A stretch of 64,000 nt of DNA from an uncultured Alphaproteobacteria bacterium (GTDB taxonomy: Bacteria > Pseudomonadota > Alphaproteobacteria > JAPOUT01 > G958296285), in assembly GCA_958296285.1 (NCBI GenBank), contig OY282459.1:1604999-1668998 (forward strand). The letters are read 5' to 3'. The notes under the pieces were generated by a model. It was not told the origin of the DNA, ran no database searches, and saw only the letters and a list, made by a program, of their open reading frames with translations. This document shows positions 1-60,897 of the stretch, in pieces. The translations under genes and the position numbers were made by a program. Every line of letters starts with the position of its first letter. The first letter of the stretch is position 1.

Positions 1-3000
1 CCTGCGCCTGTGGAGAAACTGCCTGTGAAGTTGGCGTCCGCGGCGTTTTCAAAGAGGTCGTTGCCTGTTCCGCTGAGGAAATTGCCGATGATTGTTCCCG
101 CGTTGCTTGCCCTGTTGCCGAGCCAGTTTGAGAGGCTGATGGCGCGATTGGTCGCGGCGGCGGTGTTGGAGGAATCCATGATGATGGCGCGTGTCGCGGA
201 TGATCTCGCGCGGATGGTCGCGCCTGCGGCGACATCCAGCGTCAGCTGCCCGGAGCCGGAGAAAAGCCTGACGACAGCGATGCGGCTTCCCTGGTTTCCT
301 GACGCACTATGGGTTCCGCCGTCAATGTCTATATGCGCCGTTCCCGTTCCTGAGGCGCTTGCGTCTATAGCGATGCTTTCGGTGCCTGTCGTGGAGGCGT
401 TCGCGGTCACGTCCATCGTGATATTGCCGCCTGTGCTACTTGCGGAGATGGCGTGGCTTGAGGCGGAGCCTGTGGAGACTGCGCCTGCGATATTCATGGA
501 GATATCTCCGCCGCCGCTGGCGCGGATGGCGTGCTCGCTGCCGCTTGTTCCCGTTGTGGAGATAGCCGCATCGCTGTCGGTGGTGATGCGGATGGGCATG
601 GCGTTGTTTCCTGTGGCGAGGCTGAGGGCTATTCCGCTTGTCGCGTTGATTCTGCCTTGCATGACGTGGATTTCGCTTCCCGCGCCCGTGAGTCTGATGG
701 ATGGCGTTGTGGCAGGGGTATCGTAGATGATGGCGAGGCGGCTGATATTTGTGGCGATTCCGCCGCTATATCCTGCGGCGTTGTCGCAGACGACCTGTCG
801 GTTGGCGACCCCTGGAGATACGGGAACGCGGTTTTCGGTGAGTTTTCCGCAGATCATAGTTCGGTCTAATTGGAGGACGTTATCGGCGATAAAGAGGAAG
901 CCTTGGGCGCTGGAGAGGCTTCCGAGAGATGTCGCGTCTGGGAGGCTTGTCGCGGCGATAAGCGGGATTGTTCCGCTATTGGGGATGTTTCCTGCGGAGG
1001 CTGTGAGTTCCACGGTTCCCGCGGTGAAAATGGCGGAGGAGAGATCGTTGATAGAGAGGAGGGCTGATGTTGGGGCTGTTGTGGCGTTGTAGCGGAATCG
1101 TATTGTTCCGCTTGTCTGCGTGAAATTTTCAAGAAGGGTGAAGGAAACTTGCCCGCTCGCGGCGGCATGGTCTATGACGAGCGTTCCCGTATTGATGAAA
1201 CTGTCGTTTCCCGCGCCGAAATTGCTTCTTCTTTGGTTGATTGTCATAGTTCCTGCGTTTTGGACTTCGTCGTTTCTTCCGCCCATAGTGAATTGTCCTG
1301 TGAAGTTTGCGCCGGCGGCGTTTTCAAAGAGGTCTCTGCCTGCGCCGCCGATGAAGTTTCCGATGATTGTTCCCGCGTTGCTTGCTCTGTTTCCGGCCCA
1401 AATTCCTGATCCGATGGTTCTAGGGGTCATAGTTGCCCTGTTGCTGGAGGAGAAGAGGATGGCGCGGCTCGCGCTTCCTGTGGCTTGGACTGTGGCGCCT
1501 GACGCGACATCCACGGTGAGTTGTCCTGCTCCTGTTGAGATGAGGGAGATGACGGCGAAGATTCCTGCCTGGGTTCCTGAGGCGCTATGGGTTCCGCCAT
1601 CAATATCCAGATGGATTCCGCCTGTATTTGTGTTCGTGGCGAAGAAGGCGGAGCTGAGTTCTCCAATGGCGGAGCTATTTCCGGCGAGGGATGCGGTGAT
1701 ATTGTTGCCTGCGTTATTCACTCCGGAGATTCGCGCGAAGATGGCGTGTCGGGCGGCGCCTGTGTCTGTGTTCATGACGCTGGTTCCCGCGGCGGTTGTG
1801 ATGCGAAGCGGGCTGACATTTTCTGTTGGGTCTATGCTGATGGCGGCGCCTCCGATGTCTTCTGGCGTTTTGATGATGGGGCTTGCGCCGGCTTGGACAT
1901 GGATTTCGCCTCCGCCATTGAGTTGTCGTATGAAGGGCGTTCCTGTGGCGGTGGCGCTATAGAGAATGGCGAGATTATCCACCGCGGCCGTTATGCCGCT
2001 GGCGTAGGCTTCTGCGAGGGATGCGTCGCAGACGACCTGTCTTGTGGCGACTCCTGGGGCTTGGGGGACTCGTGTGGTGAGGAGTTTGCCGCAAACTCTA
2101 GCGCCGACTATTCTGGTCAGGGTGAGTTGCAGGATGGAAGTCGCGCCGCTTGAGACGATGCTAAGGGTTCCGAAATCAGGATTGACGAGTCCGCCTAATG
2201 TGGCGAGGCTGGGATTTTCTATGAGTTGGATGACGGATCCGATGGGGAGTTCTCCGCGGAGCGGCTGAAGTTCTATGGTTCCGGCGATAAAATTGGGCAT
2301 TCCGCTGAGTCTCATAAGAGGCTCGTTGGGGGGCATATTCACGCCGCTGCCTGTGGGGTTGAAGAGGAAGCGGAGGATTCCGCTTTGGGATGGCGTGGTT
2401 TGTCCGAGGATGAAATCGGAGAGGTTGGAGAGGACGATCTGTCCGCTCTGTGCATAATTAATGACGAATGTTCCTGTGCTTGTGAGTCTGTTTCTTTGGG
2501 CGGGCATGGAAGGGTCTGTGAGCGTTCCGAAATTGGAGGTTCCGGCGAGGGTCATAGTTCCTGTGTTGGTGATGGTTCGTCCTTGCGGGCCGTTGGCGAA
2601 GGAGAAGTTTCCCGTAAATTCTCCATCATTGGCGAAGGTGATTGCTGGTCCGCTGAGGGTGAGAGTTCCTTGGATCATGCCGCCTCTTCTATTGGCGATG
2701 GTTTCCAGCCCTGTGATGCGGGCTCCTGATTGTGTGGTGATGAGTCCCGTATTGATGATGCTGTCGGCGCCGGTTCCGAAGTCGGATGTGCCGAAGAAGC
2801 TTATGACTCCTATATTGGTGATTTGGTCGTCTCCGCCTGCGAGAGAGACGTTTATTTCCATCATGCCGCCGCTATTATTGACGATATGGTCTTTGAAGTT
2901 GGCATTGGCGCCGCTTGCGATGACGCTGGCGATTTCTCCTCCGATTATTCCCGCGTTTGTGAGGATATGGGCGAAAGTTTCGGTTCCTGTGAAGGCGGCG

Positions 3001-6000
3001 AGGTTGCCGCGCTGAAAGAGGACGGCTCGGATTCCGGTTCCCGTTCTGTTGCGGGCGCAGTTATGGATGCCGGCCTGTGTGGAGACAGCGCCGGCGCAGA
3101 CGATATTGCCTGGGCGAACATCAAGGTTGAAATGCGGCGCGGCGAGATCGGATCGGAGGCGGATTGCGGCGGCATTGTCGCCGAAGACGGAGACTCGCGC
3201 GCCTGTTCCGGCGATATCTACGTTGATATCTCCATGTCTGCCGCGCGCGTTGGCGTCTATGGCGTGGGAGGAAGCGCCCGCCGTTCTGACGACTGCCGCG
3301 CCGCCTATGTCTATGTTGATTGTCCCGGCGGCGTCTGCGGAGATTCCGTGGACATTCATTCCGAAACTGTCTATGAAGGCGTTCCCAGCGAGTTCCACCG
3401 TGACGCTTTCCAGTAAGGATTGCGCGCGGATGGCGTAATCATTCACGCCTATTTTGAAGACGCTGCCCTCTATTTTGACGGAGACGTCTCCCCAGCTTTC
3501 GGCGAGGATAGCGGGATTATTGGCTCTGGCTCTATTGTCTCTATTGGCGATGAGGGTTCCTGAGGCGGTTGTGATGGCGATGGGTTTTTGTCTGGCGGCG
3601 GAGGAGTTTGTCCTGATGCTGAGAGCGGCGCCCGGGTTGAGGTCTGCGGATTTGACGATTTGGCTCGCATTTTGGCGGATATGGATTTCGCCGCCGAGTC
3701 CTGTATGGCGGATGAAGGGGGTTTCGGTGATTTTGGAGATTCCGAGCGAGGCGGCGAGGGCTTCTGTCGGGGCTTGGGTTCGGGCGTTGAGGGCGGTCAG
3801 TTCGTCCGCGGTGGCGTCGTCATCCACTTGGAAGATGTTTCCGTCCACATGGAATCTTTCGCCTCGCGCGTAGTTTGTTGCGTTGCTCCATGGGTTTGCG
3901 GCGGGGGCTGTCGGGGTATAGAGCATAGCGAGGTCGTTTTGGCTCTCTGATATTCCGGCGAGAAGGATGTCGTCGCAGAGGACTTGGAATCGGGTTATTC
4001 CGGGGGGAATGGGCGTTGTTCCGATGGAAGTCGCGATATTTCCGCCGCAATATGCGTTGGGGTTTATGAAGGTGATTTGGAGGGCGTTTCCGCTGATGGC
4101 GAGGGTGGCGGGCGTTCCTAATGCGAGAGCGAGCGTTCCGAGGTTTGTGGATGAGGAGATTGCGGTTCCTGTGATAAGATCCAGCGTTCCGGAGGTTGGG
4201 AAGGCTCCTGCCGTGGCGATGATTTCTATTGTTCCGGCGGTGAAGGTTGGCGCTGCCGTGCCTAGATTGAGGAGGGCTTGGGTGAAGGATGCGAGGGTTC
4301 TTGTTCCGCCGAAATCCATTCGGAATCGGAGCATTCCGCTTGTTTGGACGAAGTTTTCAAGATTGGCGAGTGAGATTTGGGCGTCTCCCGCCGCGTCATG
4401 GTCTATGACAAGAAGGCTTCTATTTTCCAGCCTGTCCGTTCCGGCTCCGAAATTGGATGACGCGTTGAGGGTGAGCGTTCCTGCATTTTGGATTTCGTTT
4501 TCGCCTGCGCCCATCGTGAAACTGCCGGTGAAACTGCCGCCCGCCCTATTCTCAAAGAGGAGATCGCCGCTGAAGATGTTGTGCAAAGCGCCGAGGATTC
4601 TGCCGCTATTGCTGATTCTGCTGCCTGTCCAATCGCCCGATCCGATGCTGCGCGGGGTTGTCGTGGCGGTGTTGAAGGATTCTATGTAAATCGCGTGGGT
4701 CGCCGATCCTCTTGCTTCCACGCTGGCATTGGCGGCGACATCCATTGTGATCTGTCCTCTTTGGGTCTTGAGCAAGACGACAGCGAAGTCCGCCCTTGCC
4801 TGCGCGCCTGACGAACTGTGCGCGCCGCCGAGGATATTCAGATGAACCTCGCCTCCTTCTTGGGTTTGGGCGAATATGGCGTTGCTGTTCGCGCCTGTGG
4901 TGGAGGCGTTTCCGGTGATGTCTATTGTGATGTCGCTGGCTTCTCCCCCCACGGACTCCGCGAAGATGGCTTGGCTGTTGGAGCCTGCGGTGGAGGCGTT
5001 GCCTTTGATGTCCAGCGATATGCGTCCGCCGTTCTGAGCGTGAATGGCATGGCTGCTATTGCGGGTGTCTTGATTGGAGACGGTCGTTCCTGCGGCGGTT
5101 GTGATGGCGATAGGTTCTGAGAAAGCTGTGAAGAGGTTGACCGCCGCGCCTGCGCTTTCGGCGCTGGTTTTGAGAATGGGACTTGCGCCGGCGCGGATAT
5201 GGATTTCGCCGCCTACGCCCGTATGACGAATGAAGGGCGTTCTGACGGAGGTGATTCCGAGCGAGGCGGCAAGAGCTTCTGTCGGGGCTTGGGTTCGGGC
5301 GTTGAGGGCGATGAGTTCGTCCACGGTGGCGTCGTCATCCACTTGGAAGGTGAGGCTTCCTATTCGGAAACTGTCGCCTTTGGCGTATATTACGTCGCTT
5401 CGCCATGGATTTGCGTATGCGGCATAGAGGATTGCGAGTCTGAAGGCGCTTTCGGAGATTCCTGCTGGAACGATCTCGTCGCAGAGGACTTGGAATCGGG
5501 CGATTCCTGGGGCGATGGGGGCGTTTCCTGTGGTGGCGAAGTTTCTGCCGCAGAAAGGCGTTGGCGGGGCGAAGGTGATTTGGAGGACATTGCTGGAGAG
5601 GGCGAGACTTCCATAGAGTCCTGGCGTGAGGAAGAGGAGCGCGGGGGAAACGTTGAGGTTCGCGGCGCTGACGAGGTTGAGGGTTCCGGAGGTTGGGATT
5701 TCTCCTTCGGCGGCGATGACGTCCAGCAAGATTCCTGTGGAAATGGTTGAGGTTCCGCTTCCTAGATTGAGGAGGGGCTGCGTGAAGGATGCGAGGCTTC
5801 TGCCGGGCGCGAGATTGATTCGGAATCGGAGCGTTCCTGTCGTGAAGGTGAAACTTTCCAAACCTGCGAAGTTGATTTGGGCGTTTGCGTTGGCGGCGTG
5901 GTCTATGGTGAGGGTTCCCGTATGTTGATTGATGAAACTGTCGGTTCCGCTTCCGAAATCGGCATTTCCATTGATTGTGAAGAATCCTTCATTTCGGATT

Positions 6001-9000
6001 TCGTCATTTCCTGCGCCCATGCTGATTCCGCCTGTGAAGCGCGCTGTCGCGGTATTCTCAAAGAGGTCTGCGCCCGATTCGCTTATGAGATTGCCTATGA
6101 TTTCGCCTCTATTGGTGATTCTGTTTCCCGTCCAGCTGCCTGTTCCGATTGCGCGGGAGGTCATGGAGGCGGCGTTGCTGGAGTTGAGACGGATCGCGCG
6201 CCTTCCGCTGCCCATAGTTCTGACGGCGGTGTTTTGAGCGATGTCCAAGGTGATTTGTCCGCCGTTTGACGAGAGAACGATTGTCGCCGCATTCGCGTTG
6301 GTTTGCGCTCCGGAGGAGCTGTAGGTTCCTGCGCGGAGATTTACGCTCACCCTTCCCGCCATTGCGCTTGTTGCGGAGATTGCGCTGCTGTCGCCGCCTG
6401 CGGTGGAGACATTGCCGCTGAGATCCAGGGAGATTCTGGATGCGTCGGCGCTTGCGGCGAGGATCGCGTGATTGAGGTTTCTGGCGTCTTGGTTAGAGAT
6501 CGTTGTTCCTGCGGCGGTTGTGATGACGATAGATCCCGTATCGGCGTTTATGCTGAGAGCGTTCCCTTGGGCTTGGGCGCTGGTTTTGGTGATTGTCCCC
6601 TGCGTGATATGGATTTCGCCGCGATTGCCTGAATGTCGGATGAAGGGCGTTCCTGTGGCTGGGCTGTCATAGATGATGGCGAGATTGTCTTCGCCTGTGG
6701 CGATTCCTGCGGAAAAGACTCCGTTTCTTTGGGAGTTGCAGGAGACTTGTCTGGTGGCGGTTCCTGGCGAGACGGCTTGGCGGGTTGTGATGGGGCTTCC
6801 GCAGATGAGTTGGTTGAGGACAAATTCCAATGCCAAGACGCCTTCCAGACTTAGGCGGAATTGGCCGTAGGAGCTGGTTAGCACTATCGTGCTGAGGTCT
6901 CTGCCTTCAATAAGCCTTATGACGGTGCCGGCGGCGAAGTTTCGTCCTGTGTCTATTTCTATGCTTCCTCCGCTGATTCTCGCCCTCGCCCCGCCCGTAT
7001 TGAGGATCGCGGATGCGGGCGGGGTGTCCTGATCTAGGGCGAAGACAATCGCTCCTGCTGTATGGTTGAAGTTCTCCAGATTCGTGATTTGAATTTGTCT
7101 GTTTCCGTTCGCGGCGTAATCTATGAGGAGCCTTCCCGTATTGACGAAATTGTCGGTTCCGCTTCCGAAATCACCGTTTCCGTTGATAATCATGGTTCCG
7201 GCGTTTCGGACTTCGTCATTTCCGGCGCCCATAGTGATCGTTCCTGTGAATTGTCCTGTGGCGGTATTTTCCAACAGGTCGTTTCCGGCGCCGCCGAGGA
7301 AGTCTCCGATGATTGTTCCTCTATTGGTGGCTCTATTGCCTGCCCACATTCCCGTTGTGATGGTTCTGGGGGTTGTCGCGGCGCGGTTGCTGGATTGGAT
7401 GAGGATCGCGCGCTCGGCGCTGCCGATGGCTTGGATGGCGGCGTCTGAGGCGATGTCCAAGGTGAGCAGGCCTGATCCTGACATCATGGTGATAATGGCG
7501 GTGTTCGCGTCCTGCATTCCTGACGCGCTATGGATTCCGCCGTTGATATTCACATCCACTCTTCCTGCGCCTGTTGTGGTGGCGAAGATTGTGTTGGCGT
7601 TCTGTCCTGCTGTGGCGGTATTTCCGCTGAGGTCTAGGAAGATATTGGCGGCGGCGGAGCTTCTAGCGCGGATGGCGTGGTTATTGTTTCCTGCTGTGTT
7701 TTGGTTGGCGATGAATGTGTTTGGGGCTGTGGTGATTCGGATGGGGTTCGCGCCTGAGGAGAGGATGCTGACGGCTTCGGTATCGGATTCCGTTCCTGTT
7801 CGGACGATAGATCCCTGCATGACATGGATTTCGCCGCCGTCGCCTGTATGTTGGATGAAGGAGGTTCCTGTGGCGGGGCTGTCATAGATGATGGCGAGGA
7901 AATTGTCGCTGCTTGTGATTCCTTCGCTATAGATTCCATTTCTTTGGGAATCGCAGATGGCTTCTCTGTTTGCGATTCCTGGCCCCATGATATCTCGGGA
8001 TCGGACGGGGCTTCCGCAGATGAGTTGCTGGAGCCTGATCTGCACGACTCCGCTTCCGGAGATGGAGAGCGCTCCTTGGTTTGAGGTCAATCCTCCGAGA
8101 CTTGTGAATCCGTCTGTTCGCCCTATGAGAGGAATGATGGTGTTCGCGGCGAAGGTTCCTCCTGTTTCTATTTCTATGAGTCCTTGTCTGAGGACGACCT
8201 CCGCCGCGGCCAGATGAAGGAGCGGGGATGTTGGGGGATCGTTTTCGTTCAGCCTGAATCGGAGTGTTCCGCTGTTTTGGGTGAAGATTTCCAGATTGGC
8301 GATGGAGAGGAGATTTTGGCGGCGCGTGATTCCGGCGGTGCTGTCATCAGGGGGCGTATTGAGAGCGTTGAGCGCGGTGATTTCGGCGGGGTTGCTAGAG
8401 GAGACGTCAAAGATGGCGTTTCCGACTCGGAAGACGCTTCCTGTGGCGTAAGAGTTTGTCATGCCCATCGGCGGAGCTTGCCACTCTTCTATGGCGCTGA
8501 TGACGGCGGCGTAATCTATGACGAGGATTCCTCGCCCTTGGTTGAAGAATTTGTCGCCTGCCGGTTCGTTAGGTCCGAAATCGGAGTTGGCGTTGAGCGT
8601 GAGCGTTCCTTCGTTTCGGACTTCATCCACATTGCTTGAGGAGGGAAAGAGGATCGCGCCTGTGAATTGCGCGCCTGCGGTATTTTCAAAGAGGGTGGAT
8701 CCGCCTGTGGTTCTTATATTTCCGATGATTGTTCCGGCGTTGGTGATTCGGCTGCCTCCGAACATTCCCGTTCCGATTCTTCTTGTGGTCATTCGCGTTC
8801 CGTCATTATCGCTGGCGAGGTAGATTGCGACGGTCGCGTCTCCTGCGGCTTCCACGGTCGCGCCTGATGCGATGTCCAGCGTGAAGAGTCCTCGCGCTGT
8901 ATTGGCGTCTATGACTCCTCTAATTGCGCTTCCTTCGGCTCTATGATTTCCGCCGATGATGTCCAGATCCACGATTCCCGTCCCGATCAATTGCTGATTG

Positions 9001-9710
9001 GCGATGATGGCGGGCGCTGATCTAGAGAAGGTGCTTCCTGCGAGGGTCATAAGGATATTGCCTGCGGTTTGGGCGTGGATCGCGGCGTTGGGGTTGCTTG
9101 CGCTCCCTGCGTCAGGATCGTTGTTGGCGATCATCGTATTTGGGGCGGTTATGATGCGGATGGTTCTTGTGGCGGCTGCGCCTGGCGTTATTCCGACTGT
9201 CGCGCCATCTGAGGCGCTGGCGGGCTTGACGATATTTCCGGAGAGGATGTGGATTTCGCCGCCATTGCCTGTATGGCGGAGATATTGCGCGGTTCCTGTC
9301 GCTCGGTCATAGATGATGGCGAGGCGGCTGTCGTCATAATCTATAGAGGCGTCATAAGCGGGCGCGATGTCATATTGGTCGCAGAGGATTTCCTTGTCGG
9401 CATATTGGGTGGCGGCGAGGGGTTCTGACCATCCATTGGCGGCGGTTGTTCCGTTGATTCCGCCTGGGGATCCTATGATTTCGCCTATGGCGCGATAGAC
9501 TCTCTCTGTGCCGTCTGCTGTGTGTCGGACGATTTCGCCTATTTCGTAGTCGGCGTGGTTGTAGTGAGAATATTGGACGAGTCGGGCGAGGCTTGACGGG
9601 GCGGTCGCGCCTGCGCCGCATTCATCGGCGGCGGGGGCTATTTTCGGCGCGGCGAGGATCGCGCTTGCCGCGGCGAGGGAAAAAGTTAAGAGGCGTATTT
9701 TTCCAGGCAC
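1..9710 (-). CDS. Giant secreted beta-helical repeat protein (autotransporter/adhesin-like), N-terminal >=3236 codons; ORF runs off the left window edge
   Basis: The ORF tracker accepts ATG/GTG/TTG starts yet lists no minus-strand ORF in the frame with codon low coordinate = 0 mod 3 anywhere in 1-9710, so that frame has no stop for 9.7 kb. An ORF with no in-window stop is evidently not reported. Reverse-complement translation gives a GTG start near 9710 with a Sec-like signal peptide (M)PGKIRLLTFSLAAASAILAAPKIAPAADE and an in-frame TAA just upstream. The body is Gly/Thr/Asn/Ala/Ile-rich with recurring motifs: rc of 1261-1320 = AAGANFTGQFTMGGRNDEVQ, plus GGEIHI, FENTAxAxFTG, GAGNDEVxNAGT, DFGSGTD, QVLCD, LAIIYDSPATGT, FQVDDDAT. 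Plus-strand frames 0 and 1 are the usual GC-rich antisense shadows. Confidence 0.7.
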   Translation of the reverse strand, partial: MPGKIRLLTFSLAAASAILAAPKIAPAADECGAGATAPSSLARLVQYSHYNHADYEIGEIVRHTADGTERVYRAIGEIIGSPGGINGTTAANGWSEPLAATQYADKEILCDQYDIAPAYDASIDYDDSRLAIIYDRATGTAQYLRHTGNGGEIHILSGNIVKPASASDGATVGITPGAAATRTIRIITAPNTMIANNDPDAGSASNPNAAIHAQTAGNILMTLAGSTFSRSAPAIIANQQLIGTGIVDLDIIGGNHRAEGSAIRGVIDANTARGLFTLDIASGATVEAAGDATVAIYLASDNDGTRMTTRRIGTGMFGGSRITNAGTIIGNIRTTGGSTLFENTAGAQFTGAILFPSSSNVDEVRNEGTLTLNANSDFGPNEPAGDKFFNQGRGILVIDYAAVISAIEEWQAPPMGMTNSYATGSVFRVGNAIFDVSSSNPAEITALNALNTPPDDSTAGITRRQNLLSIANLEIFTQNSGTLRFRLNENDPPTSPLLHLAAAEVVLRQGLIEIETGGTFAANTIIPLIGRTDGFTSLGGLTSNQGALSISGSGVVQIRLQQLICGSPVRSRDIMGPGIANREAICDSQRNGIYSEGITSSDNFLAIIYDSPATGTSFIQHTGDGGEIHVMQGSIVRTGTESDTEAVSILSSGANPIRITTAPNTFIANQNTAGNNNHAIRARSSAAANIFLDLSGNTATAGQNANTIFATTTGAGRVDVNINGGIHSASGMQDANTAIITMMSGSGLLTLDIASDAAIQAIGSAERAILIQSSNRAATTPRTITTGMWAGNRATNRGTIIGDFLGGAGNDLLENTATGQFTGTITMGAGNDEVRNAGTMIINGNGDFGSGTDNFVNTGRLLIDYAANGNRQIQITNLENFNHTAGAIVFALDQDTPPASAILNTGGARARISGGSIEIDTGRNFAAGTVIRLIEGRDLSTIVLTSSYGQFRLSLEGVLALEFVLNQLICGSPITTRQAVSPGTATRQVSCNSQRNGVFSAGIATGEDNLAIIYDSPATGTPFIRHSGNRGEIHITQGTITKTSAQAQGNALSINADTGSIVITTAAGTTISNQDARNLNHAILAASADASRISLDLSGNVSTAGGDSSAISATSAMAGRVSVNLRAGTYSSSGAQTNANAATIVLSSNGGQITLDIAQNTAVRTMGSGRRAIRLNSSNAASMTSRAIGTGSWTGNRITNRGEIIGNLISESGADLFENTATARFTGGISMGAGNDEIRNEGFFTINGNADFGSGTDSFINQHTGTLTIDHAANANAQINFAGLESFTFTTGTLRFRINLAPGRSLASFTQPLLNLGSGTSTISTGILLDVIAAEGEIPTSGTLNLVSAANLNVSPALLFLTPGLYGSLALSSNVLQITFAPPTPFCGRNFATTGNAPIAPGIARFQVLCDEIVPAGISESAFRLAILYAAYANPWRSDVIYAKGDSFRIGSLTFQVDDDATVDELIALNARTQAPTEALAASLGITSVRTPFIRHTGVGGEIHIRAGASPILKTSAESAGAAVNLFTAFSEPIAITTAAGTTVSNQDTRNSSHAIHAQNGGRISLDIKGNASTAGSNSQAIFAESVGGEASDITIDITGNASTTGANSNAIFAQTQEGGEVHLNILGGAHSSSGAQARADFAVVLLKTQRGQITMDVAANASVEARGSATHAIYIESFNTATTTPRSIGSGDWTGSRISNSGRILGALHNIFSGDLLFENRAGGSFTGSFTMGAGENEIQNAGTLTLNASSNFGAGTDRLENRSLLVIDHDAAGDAQISLANLENFVQTSGMLRFRMDFGGTRTLASFTQALLNLGTAAPTFTAGTIEIIATAGAFPTSGTLDLITGTAISSSTNLGTLALALGTPATLAISGNALQITFINPNAYCGGNIATSIGTTPIPPGITRFQVLCDDILLAGISESQNDLAMLYTPTAPAANPWSNATNYARGERFHVDGNIFQVDDDATADELTALNARTQAPTEALAASLGISKITETPFIRHTGLGGEIHIRQNASQIVKSADLNPGAALSIRTNSSAARQKPIAITTASGTLIANRDNRARANNPAILAESWGDVSVKIEGSVFKIGVNDYAIRAQSLLESVTVELAGNAFIDSFGMNVHGISADAAGTINIDIGGAAVVRTAGASSHAIDANARGRHGDINVDIAGTGARVSVFGDNAAAIRLRSDLAAPHFNLDVRPGNIVCAGAVSTQAGIHNCARNRTGTGIRAVLFQRGNLAAFTGTETFAHILTNAGIIGGEIASVIASGANANFKDHIVNNSGGMMEINVSLAGGDDQITNIGVISFFGTSDFGTGADSIINTGLITTQSGARITGLETIANRRGGMIQGTLTLSGPAITFANDGEFTGNFSFANGPQGRTITNTGTMTLAGTSNFGTLTDPSMPAQRNRLTSTGTFVINYAQSGQIVLSNLSDFILGQTTPSQSGILRFLFNPTGSGVNMPPNEPLMRLSGMPNFIAGTIELQPLRGELPIGSVIQLIENPSLATLGGLVNPDFGTLSIVSSGATSILQLTLTRIVGARVCGKLLTTRVPQAPGVATRQVVCDASLAEAYASGITAAVDNLAILYSATATGTPFIRQLNGGGEIHVQAGASPIIKTPEDIGGAAISIDPTENVSPLRITTAAGTSVMNTDTGAARHAIFARISGVNNAGNNITASLAGNSSAIGELSSAFFATNTNTGGIHLDIDGGTHSASGTQAGIFAVISLISTGAGQLTVDVASGATVQATGSASRAILFSSSNRATMTPRTIGSGIWAGNRASNAGTIIGNFIGGAGRDLFENAAGANFTGQFTMGGRNDEVQNAGTMTINQRRSNFGAGNDSFINTGTLVIDHAAASGQVSFTLLENFTQTSGTIRFRYNATTAPTSALLSINDLSSAIFTAGTVELTASAGNIPNSGTIPLIAATSLPDATSLGSLSSAQGFLFIADNVLQLDRTMICGKLTENRVPVSPGVANRQVVCDNAAGYSGGIATNISRLAIIYDTPATTPSIRLTGAGSEIHVMQGRINATSGIALSLATGNNAMPIRITTDSDAAISTTGTSGSEHAIRASGGGDISMNIAGAVSTGSASSHAISASSTGGNITMDVTANASTTGTESIAIDASASGTGTAHIDIDGGTHSASGNQGSRIAVVRLFSGSGQLTLDVAAGATIRARSSATRAIIMDSSNTAAATNRAISLSNWLGNRASNAGTIIGNFLSGTGNDLFENAADANFTGSFSTGA

Positions 9711-9892
9711 CGATATTCTCTCCCAAACTCTCTCCCCCCGAGAGCGGCGTTATTTTGGCGTTATGTGGCGCTATTTTTTGGCGCTATTTTGGCGCTGTTT
9801 TAAAGGAGCGTCAAGACGGCAGCCCGTTCCGAATCACATAGGCGAGAGTAGAGCATATTGTGGCTTAACTTTGCGTTAACGCAATCGCCTTT

Positions 9893-11217: not shown

Positions 11218-11304
11218 CCTCGCCGAATCGGGATTTTATCGCATTTTTTGTGATTTCAAAAAACATATTCTCGCTAGAGGAATTGGTCTATAATCGTCAT
11301 TGCC

Positions 11305-11680
11305 GGTCATTCGGCTATAGCGATAAACGCGCAAGCGATTACGTTTTGCGGACGCGGGGGCAGTACCCGCCGCCTCCACCATATCGCATCTTCTAGGAGT
11401 TTGCGATTTGACGGGGGCGAAACAGGATCGACGGGGACGGAAAGTTTGTGTCTTTCGCTCGGCATTGCACCGCCGTTATCGGGCTACGGCATAACTGCCA
11501 ACGACAACTATGCGGATGCTCGTCTCGCTGCGTAAGCGTTGAGGCTGCATCGCCTAGACATAATTGTCTGCAAGTCCTGAGTCATTCGCAAAGGTTCAGG
11601 CGGGGTTTGGCGGGCGCCCGGCAACAGAAGCCCGCCATTTTCGCGCCTTTTGGGGGTCGCGGGGGCGTTTCGCGGATTGG
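11305..11680 (+). ncRNA. ssrA: Permuted (two-piece) tmRNA: acceptor piece ending CGCCTCCACCA (~11371-11381), short intervening loop, then coding piece starting GGGGGCGAAACAGGATCGACGGGG (~11413) with tag ORF ANDNYADARLAA* (11497-11535)
   Basis: Tag reading frame GCC AAC GAC AAC TAT GCG GAT GCT CGT CTC GCT GCG TAA gives the alphaproteobacterial ANDNYAxARLAA tag. 5-prime GGGGGCG pairs with 3-prime CGCCUCC, giving the G3:U70 alanine identity pair, followed by ACCA. The UCGACGGGG 5-prime motif is conserved in tmRNAs. The 3-prime half lies upstream of the 5-prime half as in alphaproteobacterial permuted ssrA. A possible -10 TATAAT sits at ~11293. Exact ends are uncertain. Confidence 0.6.
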
Positions 11681-53950: not shown

Positions 53951-54574
53951 TTATGATTCCTTCGTGATGTTGAGACTGTCTCTTTCTTTCAAATAGGCGA
54001 TCGCGTTTTTGAGAAAATTCTCGCCATTTTTGAATCTGCCAAGACCTGTATTGCAACTGTCGCAAATAAAATCACGGATGTTGCCTGTGTGATGATCGTG
54101 ATCGGCGACAATTTTCGCCGTGATTCCGACGATAGACCTCTTTTGACAAATCGGGCATTTGAAAGTTTCTCCTCGGCGAGGGCGATTTTTTTCCATCTTT
54201 TTTGCCTGACTGCTTTTGGGCGCGCGTTTGTCAATGTCTGTTCTGCACTTCACGCAGCTGGGACGGCGGACGATGCCGTGCTTATTGTTCTGGTTTCTAG
54301 CGAATTGGCTGACAGGCAGAAGGCAATGACAGATATTGCAGATTTTTTCTTTGTATTTATCGCCCGTTTTGAGGATATCCACCTCTTTGACTCCGCTTGC
54401 GGCGACAGTCCATGTTTCATTGCTGCCTATGAGCCAGACGACAAATTTATCGGCTTGGGTTTCTTGAATCAGTCCGATGGAGTTGGTTTTGAAGTTTCGG
54501 ATTCGCCTTTCCGGCGCGCCTCCTTCATGGAGATGCCCTGCGCCTTGGATGCAGGCGACCCACCTATGCGACAC
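53951..54574 (-). CDS. Endonuclease VII-like His-Me finger nuclease with Zn-ribbon Cys pairs; putative type II restriction endonuclease
   Basis: KIVADHDHHTGNIRDFICDSCNTGLGRF matches the HxDHDHxTGxxRGxLCxxCNxxLG endonuclease VII / Hpy99I-type motif. CNICHC, CVKC, CPIC Cys pairs. 11-nt overlap with the upstream methyltransferase. Confidence 0.55.
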   Translation of the reverse strand: MSHRWVACIQGAGHLHEGGAPERRIRNFKTNSIGLIQETQADKFVVWLIGSNETWTVAASGVKEVDILKTGDKYKEKICNICHCLLPVSQFARNQNNKHGIVRRPSCVKCRTDIDKRAPKSSQAKKMEKNRPRRGETFKCPICQKRSIVGITAKIVADHDHHTGNIRDFICDSCNTGLGRFKNGENFLKNAIAYLKERDSLNITKES

Positions 54575-55382
54575 GGACGCAGCTCCGCAGCCTTTGTTTT
54601 GCGAGCTGGATATAGTCCTCCGAAATATCCACGCCGATATATTCGCGGCGGTTCAAGAGAGCCATCTTGCAGCTCGTGCCGGATCCGCACATTGGATCAA
54701 AGACGAGCTCGCCTTCATTTGTCCATGAGAGGATGTGATCCTCGGCCAATTTTTCGGGGAACACGGCAGGATGTTGGAAGGCGATTCTGTCCGATGTCGT
54801 TCCGCCCATTCCGACGGCATAAGACCATATGTTGGTTTTGGTCTTTTCTTTTTTGAGCTCTTTAAGGTTTTTTCTATTGACCGCGTCTGATCCCTTATTA
54901 TAGACGACCATTTCAAAGCCATGTCGGACTGTTTTCTCTTTGAGGGGGTTGAAGGTCTTCGGACTGCCTTTGCTCAAGACGAACATAAATTCAAAGGCGT
55001 TGGTATAGGCGTTGCTTCGCATGAAGGGCGTATTTTTTTTCTGATAGATCATGGTGTCATGCATGCTGAATCCTATTTTTTGGAAATAGAGTCCTTGTCT
55101 AAAGCTTGTGAGGCTGCGTCCTCCGTTGATGCGGTCTCCGACGATCCATACGACGATGCCGCCTTCCGCGGTTATTCTATAGAGTCCGTTGGCGATTTCG
55201 TGGAAGTTGAATTGATAGCCTTTATAGTCGCGGAGCGAATCGTAAGGAGGGGAGGTTATGGTGAGATCCACGCATCCGCGAGGCATAGATTTCATAAAAT
55301 CCACGCAGTCTGCCGTGAAGAGTCCGCGCGGTGATTGTTTTTCCTCAAAGAGGGGGCGGTTTTGCGTTTCGGGCGGGTTCAT
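54564..55382 (-). CDS. DNA amino-methyltransferase (beta-class N4-cytosine/N6-adenine, SPPY motif)
   Basis: Motif IV DLTITSPPYDSLRDY precedes motif I DPMCGSGTS (beta permutation). 272 aa. Confidence 0.85.
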   Translation of the reverse strand: MNPPETQNRPLFEEKQSPRGLFTADCVDFMKSMPRGCVDLTITSPPYDSLRDYKGYQFNFHEIANGLYRITAEGGIVVWIVGDRINGGRSLTSFRQGLYFQKIGFSMHDTMIYQKKNTPFMRSNAYTNAFEFMFVLSKGSPKTFNPLKEKTVRHGFEMVVYNKGSDAVNRKNLKELKKEKTKTNIWSYAVGMGGTTSDRIAFQHPAVFPEKLAEDHILSWTNEGELVFDPMCGSGTSCKMALLNRREYIGVDISEDYIQLAKQRLRSCVRVA

Positions 55383-55451: not shown

Positions 55452-55545
55452 TTGGGGGGGTCGGCGGGCTTCCTCGCAGGCTCGCGCTACGCGCTTCGCT
55501 CGCAAGTGCTTTTTCCTACCCTACCCCCGCGCTTCGCGCTGCTTG
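55452..55545. repeat. REP/MITE-like element, copy R10 (overlaps 3-prime end of the methyltransferase-HNH gene)
   Basis: TTGGGGGGGTCGGCGGGCTTCCTCGCAGGCTCGCGCTACGCGCTTCGCTCGCAAG... Confidence 0.55.
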
Positions 55546-56990
55546 ATCCATCCTTTATCTGTAAGACATTTGAGCAGATATTCCTGCGACTTTACGCCCT
55601 TGAGCCTGTTGCATGAACCGCATAGAAGTTGCAGGTTGCTGATGTGATCGGTTCCGCCTTTGCTTCGCGGGATGATGTGGTCTGTTTCTAGATTCTGCAT
55701 TTGGAAGTGCTGCCCGCATCCGTTGCAGTAGCCGCCTTGCTCGCCATAGAGCAGTTTTTTGTTTTCAGGACTGTTATATTTTTTCGGGATCTCGATGTCC
55801 GTGCGTTTTGGTATATCGGTGCGCCGAATACATTGATAAAACAAGCCCAGTTCATTTTTCAGGCGATCATCAACCAAGTCGGCGGCTTTGGACGAGATAT
55901 CAATGCCAATCCATTCCCGCTGTTTGTTTTCAGCGGCGATGCATGCGGTGGCGCACCCGCAGAATGGATCAAACACAATATCCCCCGAGTTGCTAGACGC
56001 CATGACAATGCGCTCCACCAGCTTCAACGGTTTCTGCGTGGGGTAATGCGTATTTTCTTTAGAAGAGGCGCTTAACGGAGGAATATCGGTCCACAGATTC
56101 GGGGGTTTTTGCCCTTGGTCAGGCGCGAGATAGCGTTTGAGGTTTGGAAAACCATCTTTCCCCGGATGATGGATTAAATCGTGTTTATCCAAGAAATCTA
56201 GCCGGTCATGCACGCCTCTTATGGCGAGGTAACCAGGGGCTAAAACCTTATCAATATATTTGGCATATTCCCCGCTTTTGGGGACAGACCAATGCCTGCC
56301 GCCATAGTTGGAAGGATTGTATCCCTTCCAGGGTCGTCCTGACTCGCCTGAACTAGTCTCCGCCCCCGTCAAGTCGCCCGTTCGATAAACACCTCGCTTG
56401 TCTTTGTGACGGTAATATTTTTTTACATATTCAGAATTAAGAGGCAGGCGGTTCGCAGGGACATCTTTGGGACTTGCCCCATAAAACAGAATAGAATCGG
56501 TTATCCTTCCGAACACCTTGTCGTTATGAGCAGATGTGCGCTGCCACGTAATCTCACCCTGAAACTTATTGCTCCCAAAAATGCAGTCCATTAAGAGTTT
56601 TAAGTAATGGCTGGCTGTGGAGTCGCAGTGCAGATAGATTGAGCCCGTTGCTTTAAGTATGCGCCGCATTTCAATAATGCGAATAACCATGTAGATCAGA
56701 TATGCCATCATGGAATCGCTGTGTCCTTCGCGCACAGCTGAAAGCAGAGAATACAGGGTTGGATTCTCATGTTTGATGATTCCATGCCAAGCGAGGCTGA
56801 TATCGTTCAACCCCCATGTGTCCTTGAATTCGGCGCCTGCAGCTTGGCTGCCAATCGGCGCGGCATAATTGGCGTTGGAATTGAAGGGGGGGTCTAGATA
56901 AATCAGGTCAACCGAGGCGCTGTTCATGCCCCGCATGATGTCAAGGTTGTCGCCCGTCCAAAGCGTGCGGTTTTTCCAATTGGGAGGCAT
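55521..56990 (-). CDS. DNA N6-adenine methyltransferase fused to a C-terminal HNH endonuclease domain
   Basis: Motif IV DLIYLDPPFNSN, motif I DIVFDPFCGCATACIAA, then C-terminal HNH CNGCGQHF...DHIIPRSKGGTDHISNLQLLCGSCNRLKG. Confidence 0.85.
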   Translation of the reverse strand: MPPNWKNRTLWTGDNLDIMRGMNSASVDLIYLDPPFNSNANYAAPIGSQAAGAEFKDTWGLNDISLAWHGIIKHENPTLYSLLSAVREGHSDSMMAYLIYMVIRIIEMRRILKATGSIYLHCDSTASHYLKLLMDCIFGSNKFQGEITWQRTSAHNDKVFGRITDSILFYGASPKDVPANRLPLNSEYVKKYYRHKDKRGVYRTGDLTGAETSSGESGRPWKGYNPSNYGGRHWSVPKSGEYAKYIDKVLAPGYLAIRGVHDRLDFLDKHDLIHHPGKDGFPNLKRYLAPDQGQKPPNLWTDIPPLSASSKENTHYPTQKPLKLVERIVMASSNSGDIVFDPFCGCATACIAAENKQREWIGIDISSKAADLVDDRLKNELGLFYQCIRRTDIPKRTDIEIPKKYNSPENKKLLYGEQGGYCNGCGQHFQMQNLETDHIIPRSKGGTDHISNLQLLCGSCNRLKGVKSQEYLLKCLTDKGWIKQREARG

Positions 56991-59470: not shown

Positions 59471-59658
59471 TGATTCGGATTGTCCAGCGTTGAGGATAGT
59501 CTTTATGGGGTTTGTTTTGGAAGGGTCTCATTGCGGGGCGCTTTTAGGGGAGCGGATGAGATTGGACGCTTCCGCGCCCAGCCCGTCATTTGAATCTATA
59601 CTATGAGGTCAGACGCTTGATTCGTTCATCGTCCGAGTTTCAAAGTTTGGAAAGCGCC

Positions 59659-60897
59659 ATGGCTGAAAAGAAGCGGCAGATTCCCCATCAGACGATTTTT
59701 ACTGGTGATAATCTGGACATCATGCGCGGCATGGATAGCGAGAGCATTGATCTCATCTATCTTGATCCGCCCTTTAATTCCAACCGCCATTATAAAGCGC
59801 CGATTGGCTCAAAGGCGGCGGGGGCTCAGTTCAAAGACGCATGGACGTTTGAGGACACGAAAGCCGCCTGGTGGGGTCTGATCGCCGATGAGCAGCCCGC
59901 GCTTTACAAGCTCATTGACACGGTGGGCGAGATCGGCAATGAGGGCGACAAAGCCTATCTCATTTACATGGCGATGCGCCTTTTGGAAATGCGCCGCATT
60001 CTGAAAGAGACGGGCAGCATTTATCTTCATTGCGATCCCACTATGAGTCATAGCCTCAAAATGGCTATGGATGCGCTGTTCGGACGCAAGAATTTCAGAA
60101 ACGAGATCGCTTGGTGCTATACGGGGCCCGGCAAAACCAAGAGCTGGTTCCCTCGCAAGCACGACATTATTCTGTTTTACGGCGCAAGCGACGGGGCCGC
60201 GTTTCGGTCGGATTCGGTGAGAGTGCCGTATAAGCAGCTCAACATACAGCACAGAGAGCGGCAAGAAACGGGCATAGGGGGAAAGCTTACGTCAGGCAAT
60301 ATCGATCTATACAAAGAACGAGGCAAAATCCCGGAGGATTGGTGGTCAGACATATCACCTGTCGGCAGGATAAAGAAGGAGCGCACAGGCTATCCCACGC
60401 AGAAGCCTTTGGCGCTGTTGCGGCGCATTATCCTTGCCTCCAGCCATGCCGGGGACATGGTGCTAGACCCATTTTGCGGCTGCGCGACTGCCTGCATCGC
60501 GGCGGAGGAATTGTCCCGCCAATGGATAGGAATTGATCTCTCGCCCTTGGCGGCGAAACTCGTTAAACAGCGCATGAAAAACGAGCTTGACCTCCTTACC
60601 TATAAAGATCTCATGCATAGGCATGACATTCCGCGGCGAAGCGATCAGATCACGAAGCCGTCTAGGAACATCAACCACATTCTTTTTGGCGAGCAGGAGG
60701 GCAGATGCAATGGCTGCCGCCATTCTTTTCCGTTCCAGAATTTCACCCGCGATCATATTATTCCCACCGACAAGGGCGGCGCGGACACGGACGACAATCT
60801 GCAGCTTCTGTGCGCGCGCTGCAATTCCATCAAGGGCAGTCGCCCGATGGAATATCTGATCGCTCAGCTGAAAAAAGACGGCACGATAGCAAGATGA
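59659..60897 (+). CDS. DNA N6-adenine methyltransferase-HNH endonuclease fusion, paralog of 55521-56990
   Basis: DLIYLDPPFNSN, DMVLDPFCGCATACIAA, C-terminal CNGCRHSF...DHIIPTDKGGADTDDNLQLLCARCNSIKG. Same domain order and many identical blocks as the 55521 gene. Start placed at MAEKKRQIPHQ; the tracked start is 59590. Confidence 0.85.
   Translation: MAEKKRQIPHQTIFTGDNLDIMRGMDSESIDLIYLDPPFNSNRHYKAPIGSKAAGAQFKDAWTFEDTKAAWWGLIADEQPALYKLIDTVGEIGNEGDKAYLIYMAMRLLEMRRILKETGSIYLHCDPTMSHSLKMAMDALFGRKNFRNEIAWCYTGPGKTKSWFPRKHDIILFYGASDGAAFRSDSVRVPYKQLNIQHRERQETGIGGKLTSGNIDLYKERGKIPEDWWSDISPVGRIKKERTGYPTQKPLALLRRIILASSHAGDMVLDPFCGCATACIAAEELSRQWIGIDLSPLAAKLVKQRMKNELDLLTYKDLMHRHDIPRRSDQITKPSRNINHILFGEQEGRCNGCRHSFPFQNFTRDHIIPTDKGGADTDDNLQLLCARCNSIKGSRPMEYLIAQLKKDGTIAR

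Follow-up and report, generated by a model that had tools for sequence, protein, structure and literature searches.

At the left edge of an alphaproteobacterial contig window, a giant gene that very probably encodes a type Va autotransporter begins with its 5′ quarter

What is encoded in the first 9.7 kb of a contig stretch, a part for which no long gene is listed? The window, the whole 64,000-nucleotide stretch of contig OY282459.1 (assembly GCA_958296285.1, positions 1,604,999 to 1,668,998) analyzed here, comes from an uncultured member of the Alphaproteobacteria. For positions 1–9710, a listing of open reading frames (ORFs) of at least 100 aa holds 26 on the plus strand and two (866–1168 and 7634–7939) on the minus strand. 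A first-pass annotation, made from the sequence alone, proposed that a single secreted repeat protein of more than 3,200 codons lies unlisted on the minus strand. Our analyses indicate that positions 3–9710 of that strand are very probably the 5′ quarter of one gene for a type Va monomeric autotransporter of ~12,000 residues. The parts list of such a protein is present, as the signal peptide and passenger modules are found in the window and the linker helix, barrel and aromatic end in an orthologue. The gene enters the feature list as follows:

3..9710, minus strand: start of the probable giant type Va autotransporter gene, first 3,236 codons, from a stop-free frame and a GTG start; the left edge of the window cuts the gene

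A long frame missing from the ORF listing

On translation, the minus-strand frame whose codons have a low coordinate of 0 mod 3 is free of stops from 9749 to base 3, a run of 3,249 codons, and the nearest upstream stop in this frame is at 9750–9752. The proposal of a single frame of more than 3,200 codons, stop-free from ~9710 to the window edge, therefore holds. Within the first 60 codons the sole ATG, GTG or TTG is the GTG at 9710, and a start there leaves 3,236 residues visible in the window. Both listed minus-strand ORFs are in another frame, as the first-pass annotation had said (their start coordinates are 1 mod 3, that of the giant gene 2 mod 3). Why was so long a frame missed? The listing leaves out ORFs that run off the source, and the gene is absent for this reason only, again as proposed; no further sizeable edge-running ORF occurs in the whole window. 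ORF and gene listings that need both ends inside a window thus hide exactly the largest genes. The size first given, more than 3,200 codons, was correct as far as it went but an underestimate, since the window contains only about a quarter of the gene (12,470 aa in the orthologue).

Could the frame be a non-gene, kept free of stops by skewed composition and repeats, with the plus-strand ORFs as the real genes? Strand skew is strong (GC skew +0.15 to +0.22, AT skew ~−0.3), and many long antisense ORFs lie over the giant gene because of this skew. However, the probability of zero stops across 3,249 codons, computed from base composition, is ~1e-45, the longest open run in the five remaining frames of the same stretch is 289 codons, and the plus-strand ORFs, all shorter than 290 codons, are antisense to the giant frame. 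Moreover, the giant frame has 113 homologues, one of its modules yields a confident β-helix model, and its synonymous changes are in excess. This explanation, whose chance of being right we put at practically nil, is already refuted.

Two other assemblies of the same species argue that the giant frame is a real gene. The frame stays open and gap-free in both, with 96.5% identity over 2,427 aa in ERZ19489054 contig_13 and 97.2% over the first 3,236 residues of the orthologue in ERZ19489113. Contig_13 is collinear with the window and 97–98% identical to it in DNA; it stops within the giant gene, at the equivalent of position 2428 of the window. Compared with contig_13, the giant gene has a nonsynonymous rate (dN) of 0.018 and a synonymous rate (dS) of 0.058 (dN/dS 0.31), so that synonymous change is ~3-fold more frequent per site, a pattern that indicates purifying selection. 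Its dN is 4–9 times that of fumC, an OYE-type oxidoreductase gene and an AsmA-like gene (0.002–0.004). The adjacent folA, with dN 0.029, changes as fast as or faster than the giant gene.

The leader and N terminus contain these candidate elements:

9718..9724, minus strand: Shine-Dalgarno-like GGGAGAG, 7 nt upstream of the GTG, read from the sequence
9746..9801, no strand assigned: 11-nt tandem repeat AAAATAGCGCC (given on the gene's strand), about 5 copies (Tandem Repeats Finder: period 11, 5.0 copies)
9786..9814, minus strand: sigma-70-like promoter match TTGACG-17-CAAAAT, from a consensus scan (1 site vs 0.1 expected; a pattern match only)
9630..9710, minus strand: predicted Sec signal peptide, residues 1–27, MPGKIRLLTFSLAAASAILAAPKIAPA then ADEC, from a hydrophobic core and an A-x-A site

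A purine-rich site comparable to the Shine-Dalgarno-like element occurs at the equivalent position in two other loci, L002 and L005. The 11-nt repeat sits upstream of the start codon and downstream of the promoter-like site, the only such match, whose −10 element it overlaps. Both conspecific assemblies have ~2 copies of the repeat and an intergenic region 38 nt shorter than that of the window. One possibility is that production of the surface protein is influenced by this strain-variable repeat, which lies in the leader or promoter of the gene.

The Sec signal peptide that the first-pass annotation placed at the N terminus is supported by sequence features. It has the expected three-region layout, with an n-region that contains K/R, a core of hydrophobic residues (Kyte-Doolittle ~2.0) and a predicted cleavage junction between APA and ADEC, and a junction of the form [small]-x-A followed by [AEV]DECG recurs among paralogues.

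Seven modules, their predicted fold and their relatives

After the signal peptide, the visible protein consists of seven tandem modules, pairwise 29–52% identical in the module alignment:

8031..9629, minus strand: module 1, residues 28–560 (1–560 including the signal peptide)
6816..8030, minus strand: module 2, residues 561–965, Cys565/Cys586
5565..6815, minus strand: module 3, residues 966–1382, Cys970/Cys991; the module used for the structure model
4062..5564, minus strand: module 4, residues 1383–1883, with a W..Y..GD.F..G...F.V insert at 5250–5411
2106..4061, minus strand: module 5, residues 1884–2535, the longest module
864..2105, minus strand: module 6, residues 2536–2949, Cys2540/Cys2561
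3..863, minus strand: module 7, residues 2950–3236, Cys2954/Cys2975, cut by the window edge

Each module begins C-G-...-P-G-...-C-[DN], with its two cysteines 21–24 positions apart except in module 1, where they are 79 apart in a loop (Cys31–Cys110) widened by a ~60-aa insert (9381–9620). These seven opening pairs account for 14 of the 16 cysteines, leaving 2205 and 2218 as an additional pair within module 5. Module 1 contains a second insert, of ~55 aa, at 8325–8489, and module 5 contains extra coils and an insert of the module-4 type at 3735–3896. The ~55-aa inserts (55–80 aa) of modules 1, 4 and 5 share a W..Y..G[DE].F.[VI] signature, and a Pfam scan of them recognized no family. We considered that the inserts might be CBM5/12-like carbohydrate-binding domains, a guess from the W..Y..GD.F motif to which Pfam gave no support and which stays speculative.

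The DNA of the modules, 60–83% identical, shows them to be old duplicates, and the only near-identical DNA repeat of the gene in the window is a stretch of 103 nt in the inserts (3735–3837 in module 5 vs 5250–5352 in module 4, 93% identical). Because the intragenic repeats are this diverged apart from the 103-nt stretch, a simple-sequence contingency locus within the coding region was rejected. The 3,236 residues are 13.5% Ala, 11.6% Gly, 10.4% Thr, 9.4% Ile, 9.3% Ser, 7.3% Asn and 0.6% Lys. The protein had been described as Gly/Thr/Asn-rich; all three residues are indeed abundant, but Ala is the most frequent and Ile and Ser are also high.

How might a module fold? AlphaFold2, given the seven-module alignment, produced a confident, all-β model of module 3 (pLDDT 90.1, pTM 0.90), in which the passenger module is predicted to be a right-handed parallel β-helix. 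On this model, a single module would have roughly the size and shape of a small autotransporter's whole passenger. The β-helix-like repeats of the first-pass annotation are thus borne out by the model, and the repeats prove to be tandem modules. The pertactin and PATR families for which it had suggested profile searches are not matched: Pertactin (PF03212) and other passenger families gave no match on any module even at E ≤ 1, and PATR (PF12951) likewise went unmatched at E ≤ 1, both by the entire protein and by the modules scanned one at a time. The modules have a distant profile link to P0059, a classical pertactin-type autotransporter (E 1.5e-7).

Relatives of the modules were found with a seven-module profile, which gave 113 matches among 1.84 billion representative proteins, 41 of them at E ≤ 1e-30. 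Giants of 3,000–5,100 aa are numerous among the 113, whose identity to the window protein never exceeds 39%. A word-index homology search with module 3, capped at 8,000 candidates, found no match; given the relatives recovered by the exhaustive profile search, this was a false negative caused by the cap. A common C-terminal domain of ~340 aa, ending ...NYAF or ...KYAF, is carried by 26 of the 41 strong matches, and all 26 of these barrel-bearing proteins end in F or W. The remaining 15 are mostly fragment-like, either lacking a signal-like N terminus or having frameshift-like tails; the exception is P0035, which looks complete and ends in F and is unmatched by the barrel profile.

The C-terminal barrel, the orthologue and its genome

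If the window encodes a passenger, where is the translocator? The window's DHFR, enoyl-CoA hydratase, SufS and a 369-aa protein all recur without a single change on a 1,733,000-bp NCBI/ENA contig, so the window comes from that genome. The 3′ end of the window's own gene was not found by contig scans with module 7 and with the paralogue P0119, by a search for an exact 40-mer in metagenome contigs, by plasmid megablast or by exact look-ups of the window's DHFR and of the paralogues P0119 and P0118. The orthologue is on contig s55.ptg000057c of ERZ19489113 (1,723,605 bp), the name of which bears what we take to be hifiasm's circular-contig suffix. This contig encodes a GlnE 99% identical to that of the window and has the same thyA-folA-giant gene order. 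The orthologue is called at 12,470 aa, and its coordinates (605,672–643,084) amount to precisely 12,471 codons. The final 2,064 residues contain one partial and four complete ~400-aa modules (4.3), followed by a helix and a barrel.

Scanned alone, the C terminus of the orthologue matches PF03797 with 54.8 bits (cut-off 26) over model positions 2–255 of 255. It also matches the barrel HMM of the family (E 2.4e-103) and terminates in ...FRFNYAF, a C-terminal aromatic β-signal. The translocator that the first-pass annotation had expected outside the window, if anywhere, is therefore present in a 97%-identical orthologue. Pfam scans of full-length family proteins missed PF03797, whereas isolated C termini pass at ~2 times the gathering score; the earlier lack of a barrel match was a scanning artefact. 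Domain scans of whole, compositionally biased giants can thus miss real domains, as PF03797 surfaced only when the C terminus was scanned alone.

Structural comparisons identify the C-terminal domain of the family as an autotransporter translocator. Its profile, compared with the PDB, matches the barrel of full-length EstA (E 7e-5), and a YD.L.QT.W.ADRAF motif is conserved in the helix-barrel domain. The AlphaFold2 model of the domain from a paralogue (pLDDT 88) has a ~30-residue helix (residues 8–37) followed by a β-barrel. When this barrel model was used in a Foldseek search, the top 17 matches were all type Va translocators, with EstA first (4.9e-15) and NalP, EspP, AaaA, AIDA-I, BrkA and Hbp after it, with TM-scores of 0.63–0.80 (higher normalization). 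The model aligns with full-length EstA and pre-cleavage EspP, with the helix preceding the barrel.

It could be argued that the giant protein is secreted by another route, as a TpsA exoprotein of a two-partner secretion (TPS) system or a type I secreted RTX/Bap-like adhesin, and that it resembles autotransporters only through a common β-helix. We consider this very unlikely. A helix-preceded barrel of the PF03797 type is found at the C terminus of the 97%-identical orthologue and of all complete members of the family; the TPS domain and RTX repeats (HemolysinCabind) have no match in module 1 or the other modules; and no TpsB, ABC transporter or membrane-fusion genes were seen among the flanking ORF translations and called genes. 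The first-pass reading of the protein as an autotransporter passenger, which already drew on the signal-like N terminus and the repeats now seen as modules, gains its support from the orthologue, because the latter ends in a helix and a PF03797 barrel and heads a paralogue array.

This array consists of seven same-strand tandem paralogues, of 12,470, 1,199, 4,569, 2,984, 1,817, 1,436 and 6,440 aa, with the giant orthologue first. It encodes 30,915 residues in ~93 kb (~605.7–699 kb of the record), or 5.4% of the 1.72-Mb genome, and all complete members have a signal-like N terminus with [AEVQ][DE]ECG, modules and a barrel. Since some intergenic gaps are merely 19–50 nt, it is possible that the array genes are co-transcribed. 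The commitment of ~5% of a 1.7-Mb genome to seven such genes points to surface fibres as central to the lifestyle of the organism.

The four C-proximal modules of the orthologue are 75–95% identical to one another, and the first three are 94–95% identical (vs 29–52% for the window modules), a pattern that indicates recent tandem amplification. Because these modules are near-identical, the central stretch of the orthologue, 21.4 kb that were not read and whose continuity comes from the depositor's gene call, probably consists of serial 1.2-kb units that were amplified recently; the exact length of the gene may therefore differ between strains or assemblies. We estimate that the orthologue has ~28–30 modules and, by extrapolation from the composition of its visible parts, that its product is ~1.26 MDa.

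Is the window's gene instead a decaying or truncated remnant, or one that is split beyond the edge, with 12,470 aa a peculiarity of one strain or an artefact of assembly or gene calling? The repeat-rich middle is unseen, one conspecific assembly breaks within the gene, several database homologues have frameshift-like tails (for example, P0001), and the two complete genomes (1.733 vs 1.724 Mb) differ by 9.4 kb. The break, that of contig_13 at window position 2428, sits in the diverged module 5, where a near-identical run would not explain it. Yet the window shows all 3,236 codons uninterrupted, with the matching stretch intact and gap-free in two other assemblies; the dN/dS of 0.31 indicates selection on the protein; and a single 12,471-codon call has the two ends of the orthologue in its frame. 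On these grounds we regard a remnant or artefact as unlikely and favor an intact giant gene.

The surroundings of the gene in the window are those of an ordinary alphaproteobacterial chromosome, with thyA-folA, fumC, the suf cluster, glnE, ccmF and restriction-modification genes. The organism is placed in the Alphaproteobacteria by a tmRNA of the two-piece (permuted) alphaproteobacterial type at 11262–11639 on the plus strand (Rfam RF01849, 219 bits; tag peptide ANDNYADARLAA). The GlnE of this lineage shares no more than 46% identity with any sequence carrying a source name. Across most of the window, the plus strand shows a GC skew of +0.15 to +0.33 and an AT skew of ~−0.25 to −0.35 regardless of gene strand, fumC being on the plus strand and the giant gene on the minus strand. 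In segments of lower G+C (0.48–0.51) at ~22–24, 38–40, 44–46, 54–56 and 60–62 kb, the skew is near zero and restriction-modification or mobile-looking genes are found; these segments look as if they were recently acquired. Such segments contain three N6/N4-type DNA methyltransferase genes (54564–55382 and 55521–56990 on the minus strand, 59590–60897 on the plus strand) beside a small endonuclease-like gene. The second and third methyltransferases are clearly paralogous and share an HNH-like CxxC...H..P...GG...N.QLLC motif at the C terminus.

Two further paralogues, of 378 and 582 aa, are adjacent on the minus strand (24817–25953 and 25968–27716), and the N-terminal part of each is repeated and rich in Pro/Gln. 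The C-terminal domains match Pfam Josephin over its full length, though weakly and below threshold (E 0.23 and 0.26), with the motif GDCGMHAINAFLGG in one copy and NLSGMHAINAFLGG, which lacks a Cys, in the other. The shorter gene appears to be split in contig_13, where it corresponds to calls of 162 and 203 aa. The pair may be eukaryote-like effectors of the deubiquitinase type, which would hint at a host-associated lifestyle.

Export, weight of the evidence and known systems

How would a protein of this size reach the cell surface? By analogy with the established type Va pathway, Sec would export the protein, which would be kept unfolded in the periplasm; BAM (and TAM) would insert the C-terminal barrel; the passenger would thread outward as a hairpin, C terminus first; and sequential folding of the β-helix modules on the surface would supply the pull. 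Natural autotransporter passengers have few cysteines, and work by Leyton and colleagues in 2011 is said to have found that only small disulfide loops pass the barrel. The presence of one short cysteine loop per module fits this constraint, and short paired loops of this kind would be compatible with passage.

The product would most likely be a very long surface fibre that acts as an adhesin. Since autotransporters display the N terminus farthest from the membrane, the window would encode the distal head. Its diverged modules, with their small inserted domains, would make an exposed, faster-evolving binding end and are the obvious candidate binding surface, and the near-identical C-proximal modules would make a length-adjustable stalk. 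If the modules stack, the ~12,100 passenger residues would, scaled from the Fusobacterium nucleatum autotransporter Fap2, span ~0.2 μm.

Several points weigh against this interpretation. The window's own gene is cut by the edge, with its 3′ end and barrel unseen, and the modules, in the whole protein and singly, match no curated family in Pfam or NCBIfam. The central 21.4 kb of the orthologue rests on the depositor's call, near-identical 1.2-kb repeats could be miscounted by an assembler, and in the third assembly the contig ends within the gene. Secretion, surface display, adhesion and the end-to-end stacking of modules are all inference, and we know of no one who has shown type Va export of a passenger this large.

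The boldest version of our interpretation is that this is the largest autotransporter yet described: a single polypeptide of 12,470 aa and ~1.26 MDa that passes through one small barrel to form a ~0.2-μm fibre, with a stalk adjustable by recombination, a fast-evolving head and expression tuned by the strain-variable 11-nt repeat. Together with its six paralogues, which bring the share of the reduced 1.7-Mb genome to 5.4%, it would serve as the chief point of contact between the organism and a host or partner. Taken as a whole, this picture is tentative, and we are inclined to doubt that every part of it will hold. If the call of 12,470 residues is true, the size range for the energy-free type Va mechanism is stretched, and the protein offers a natural system for testing models in which secretion is driven, one module after another, by folding of the passenger.

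How does the giant protein compare with known systems? The passengers of UpaB (PDB 6bea), Vag8 (7akv) and pertactin (1dab/2iou) are only ~12% identical to the module in sequence, and each is one β-helix, whereas the giant protein would string many together. With the translocators of EstA, NalP, EspP and AIDA-I (PF03797), the orthologue and paralogues share the pore-filling helix and a barrel ending in an aromatic residue; the barrel of the orthologue, which lies outside the window, is divergent, with 10–17% identity to them. Fap2 (3,786 aa) has a solved structure, in which 2,905 residues span 47 nm, and its ~3,400-residue passenger is experimentally a rod with a binding tip (PMC12397386; PDB 9qe7). 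It is about one third the length of the orthologue, lacks recognizable ~400-aa tandem modules and has known receptors, whereas the giant protein is known here from sequence alone.

The closest counterpart is BigE, a betaproteobacterial autotransporter of 10,429 aa with eight-fold replication of the passenger domain plus internal repeats, which is known from sequence only and was described as larger than any other known autotransporter (Celik et al., 2012; PMC3419190). Our full-text literature searches found no named autotransporter longer than BigE and no mention of BigE in any paper besides PMC3419190. Both proteins are of type Va, and both owe their length to tandem replication of a whole passenger-sized unit. 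However, BigE, which we compared by description and not by sequence, belongs to the BrkA-like passenger group, whereas the modules described here match no Pertactin/BrkA-type or other curated family, and a cysteine loop opens each of them. In addition, the orthologue is longer (12,470 vs 10,429 aa), and the giant gene belongs to a 1.7-Mb alphaproteobacterial genome, where it is the first of seven tandem paralogues. What stands out is the size, the seven-gene array and a passenger module outside the curated libraries; the architecture and mechanism are known already, and this is not a new kind of system.

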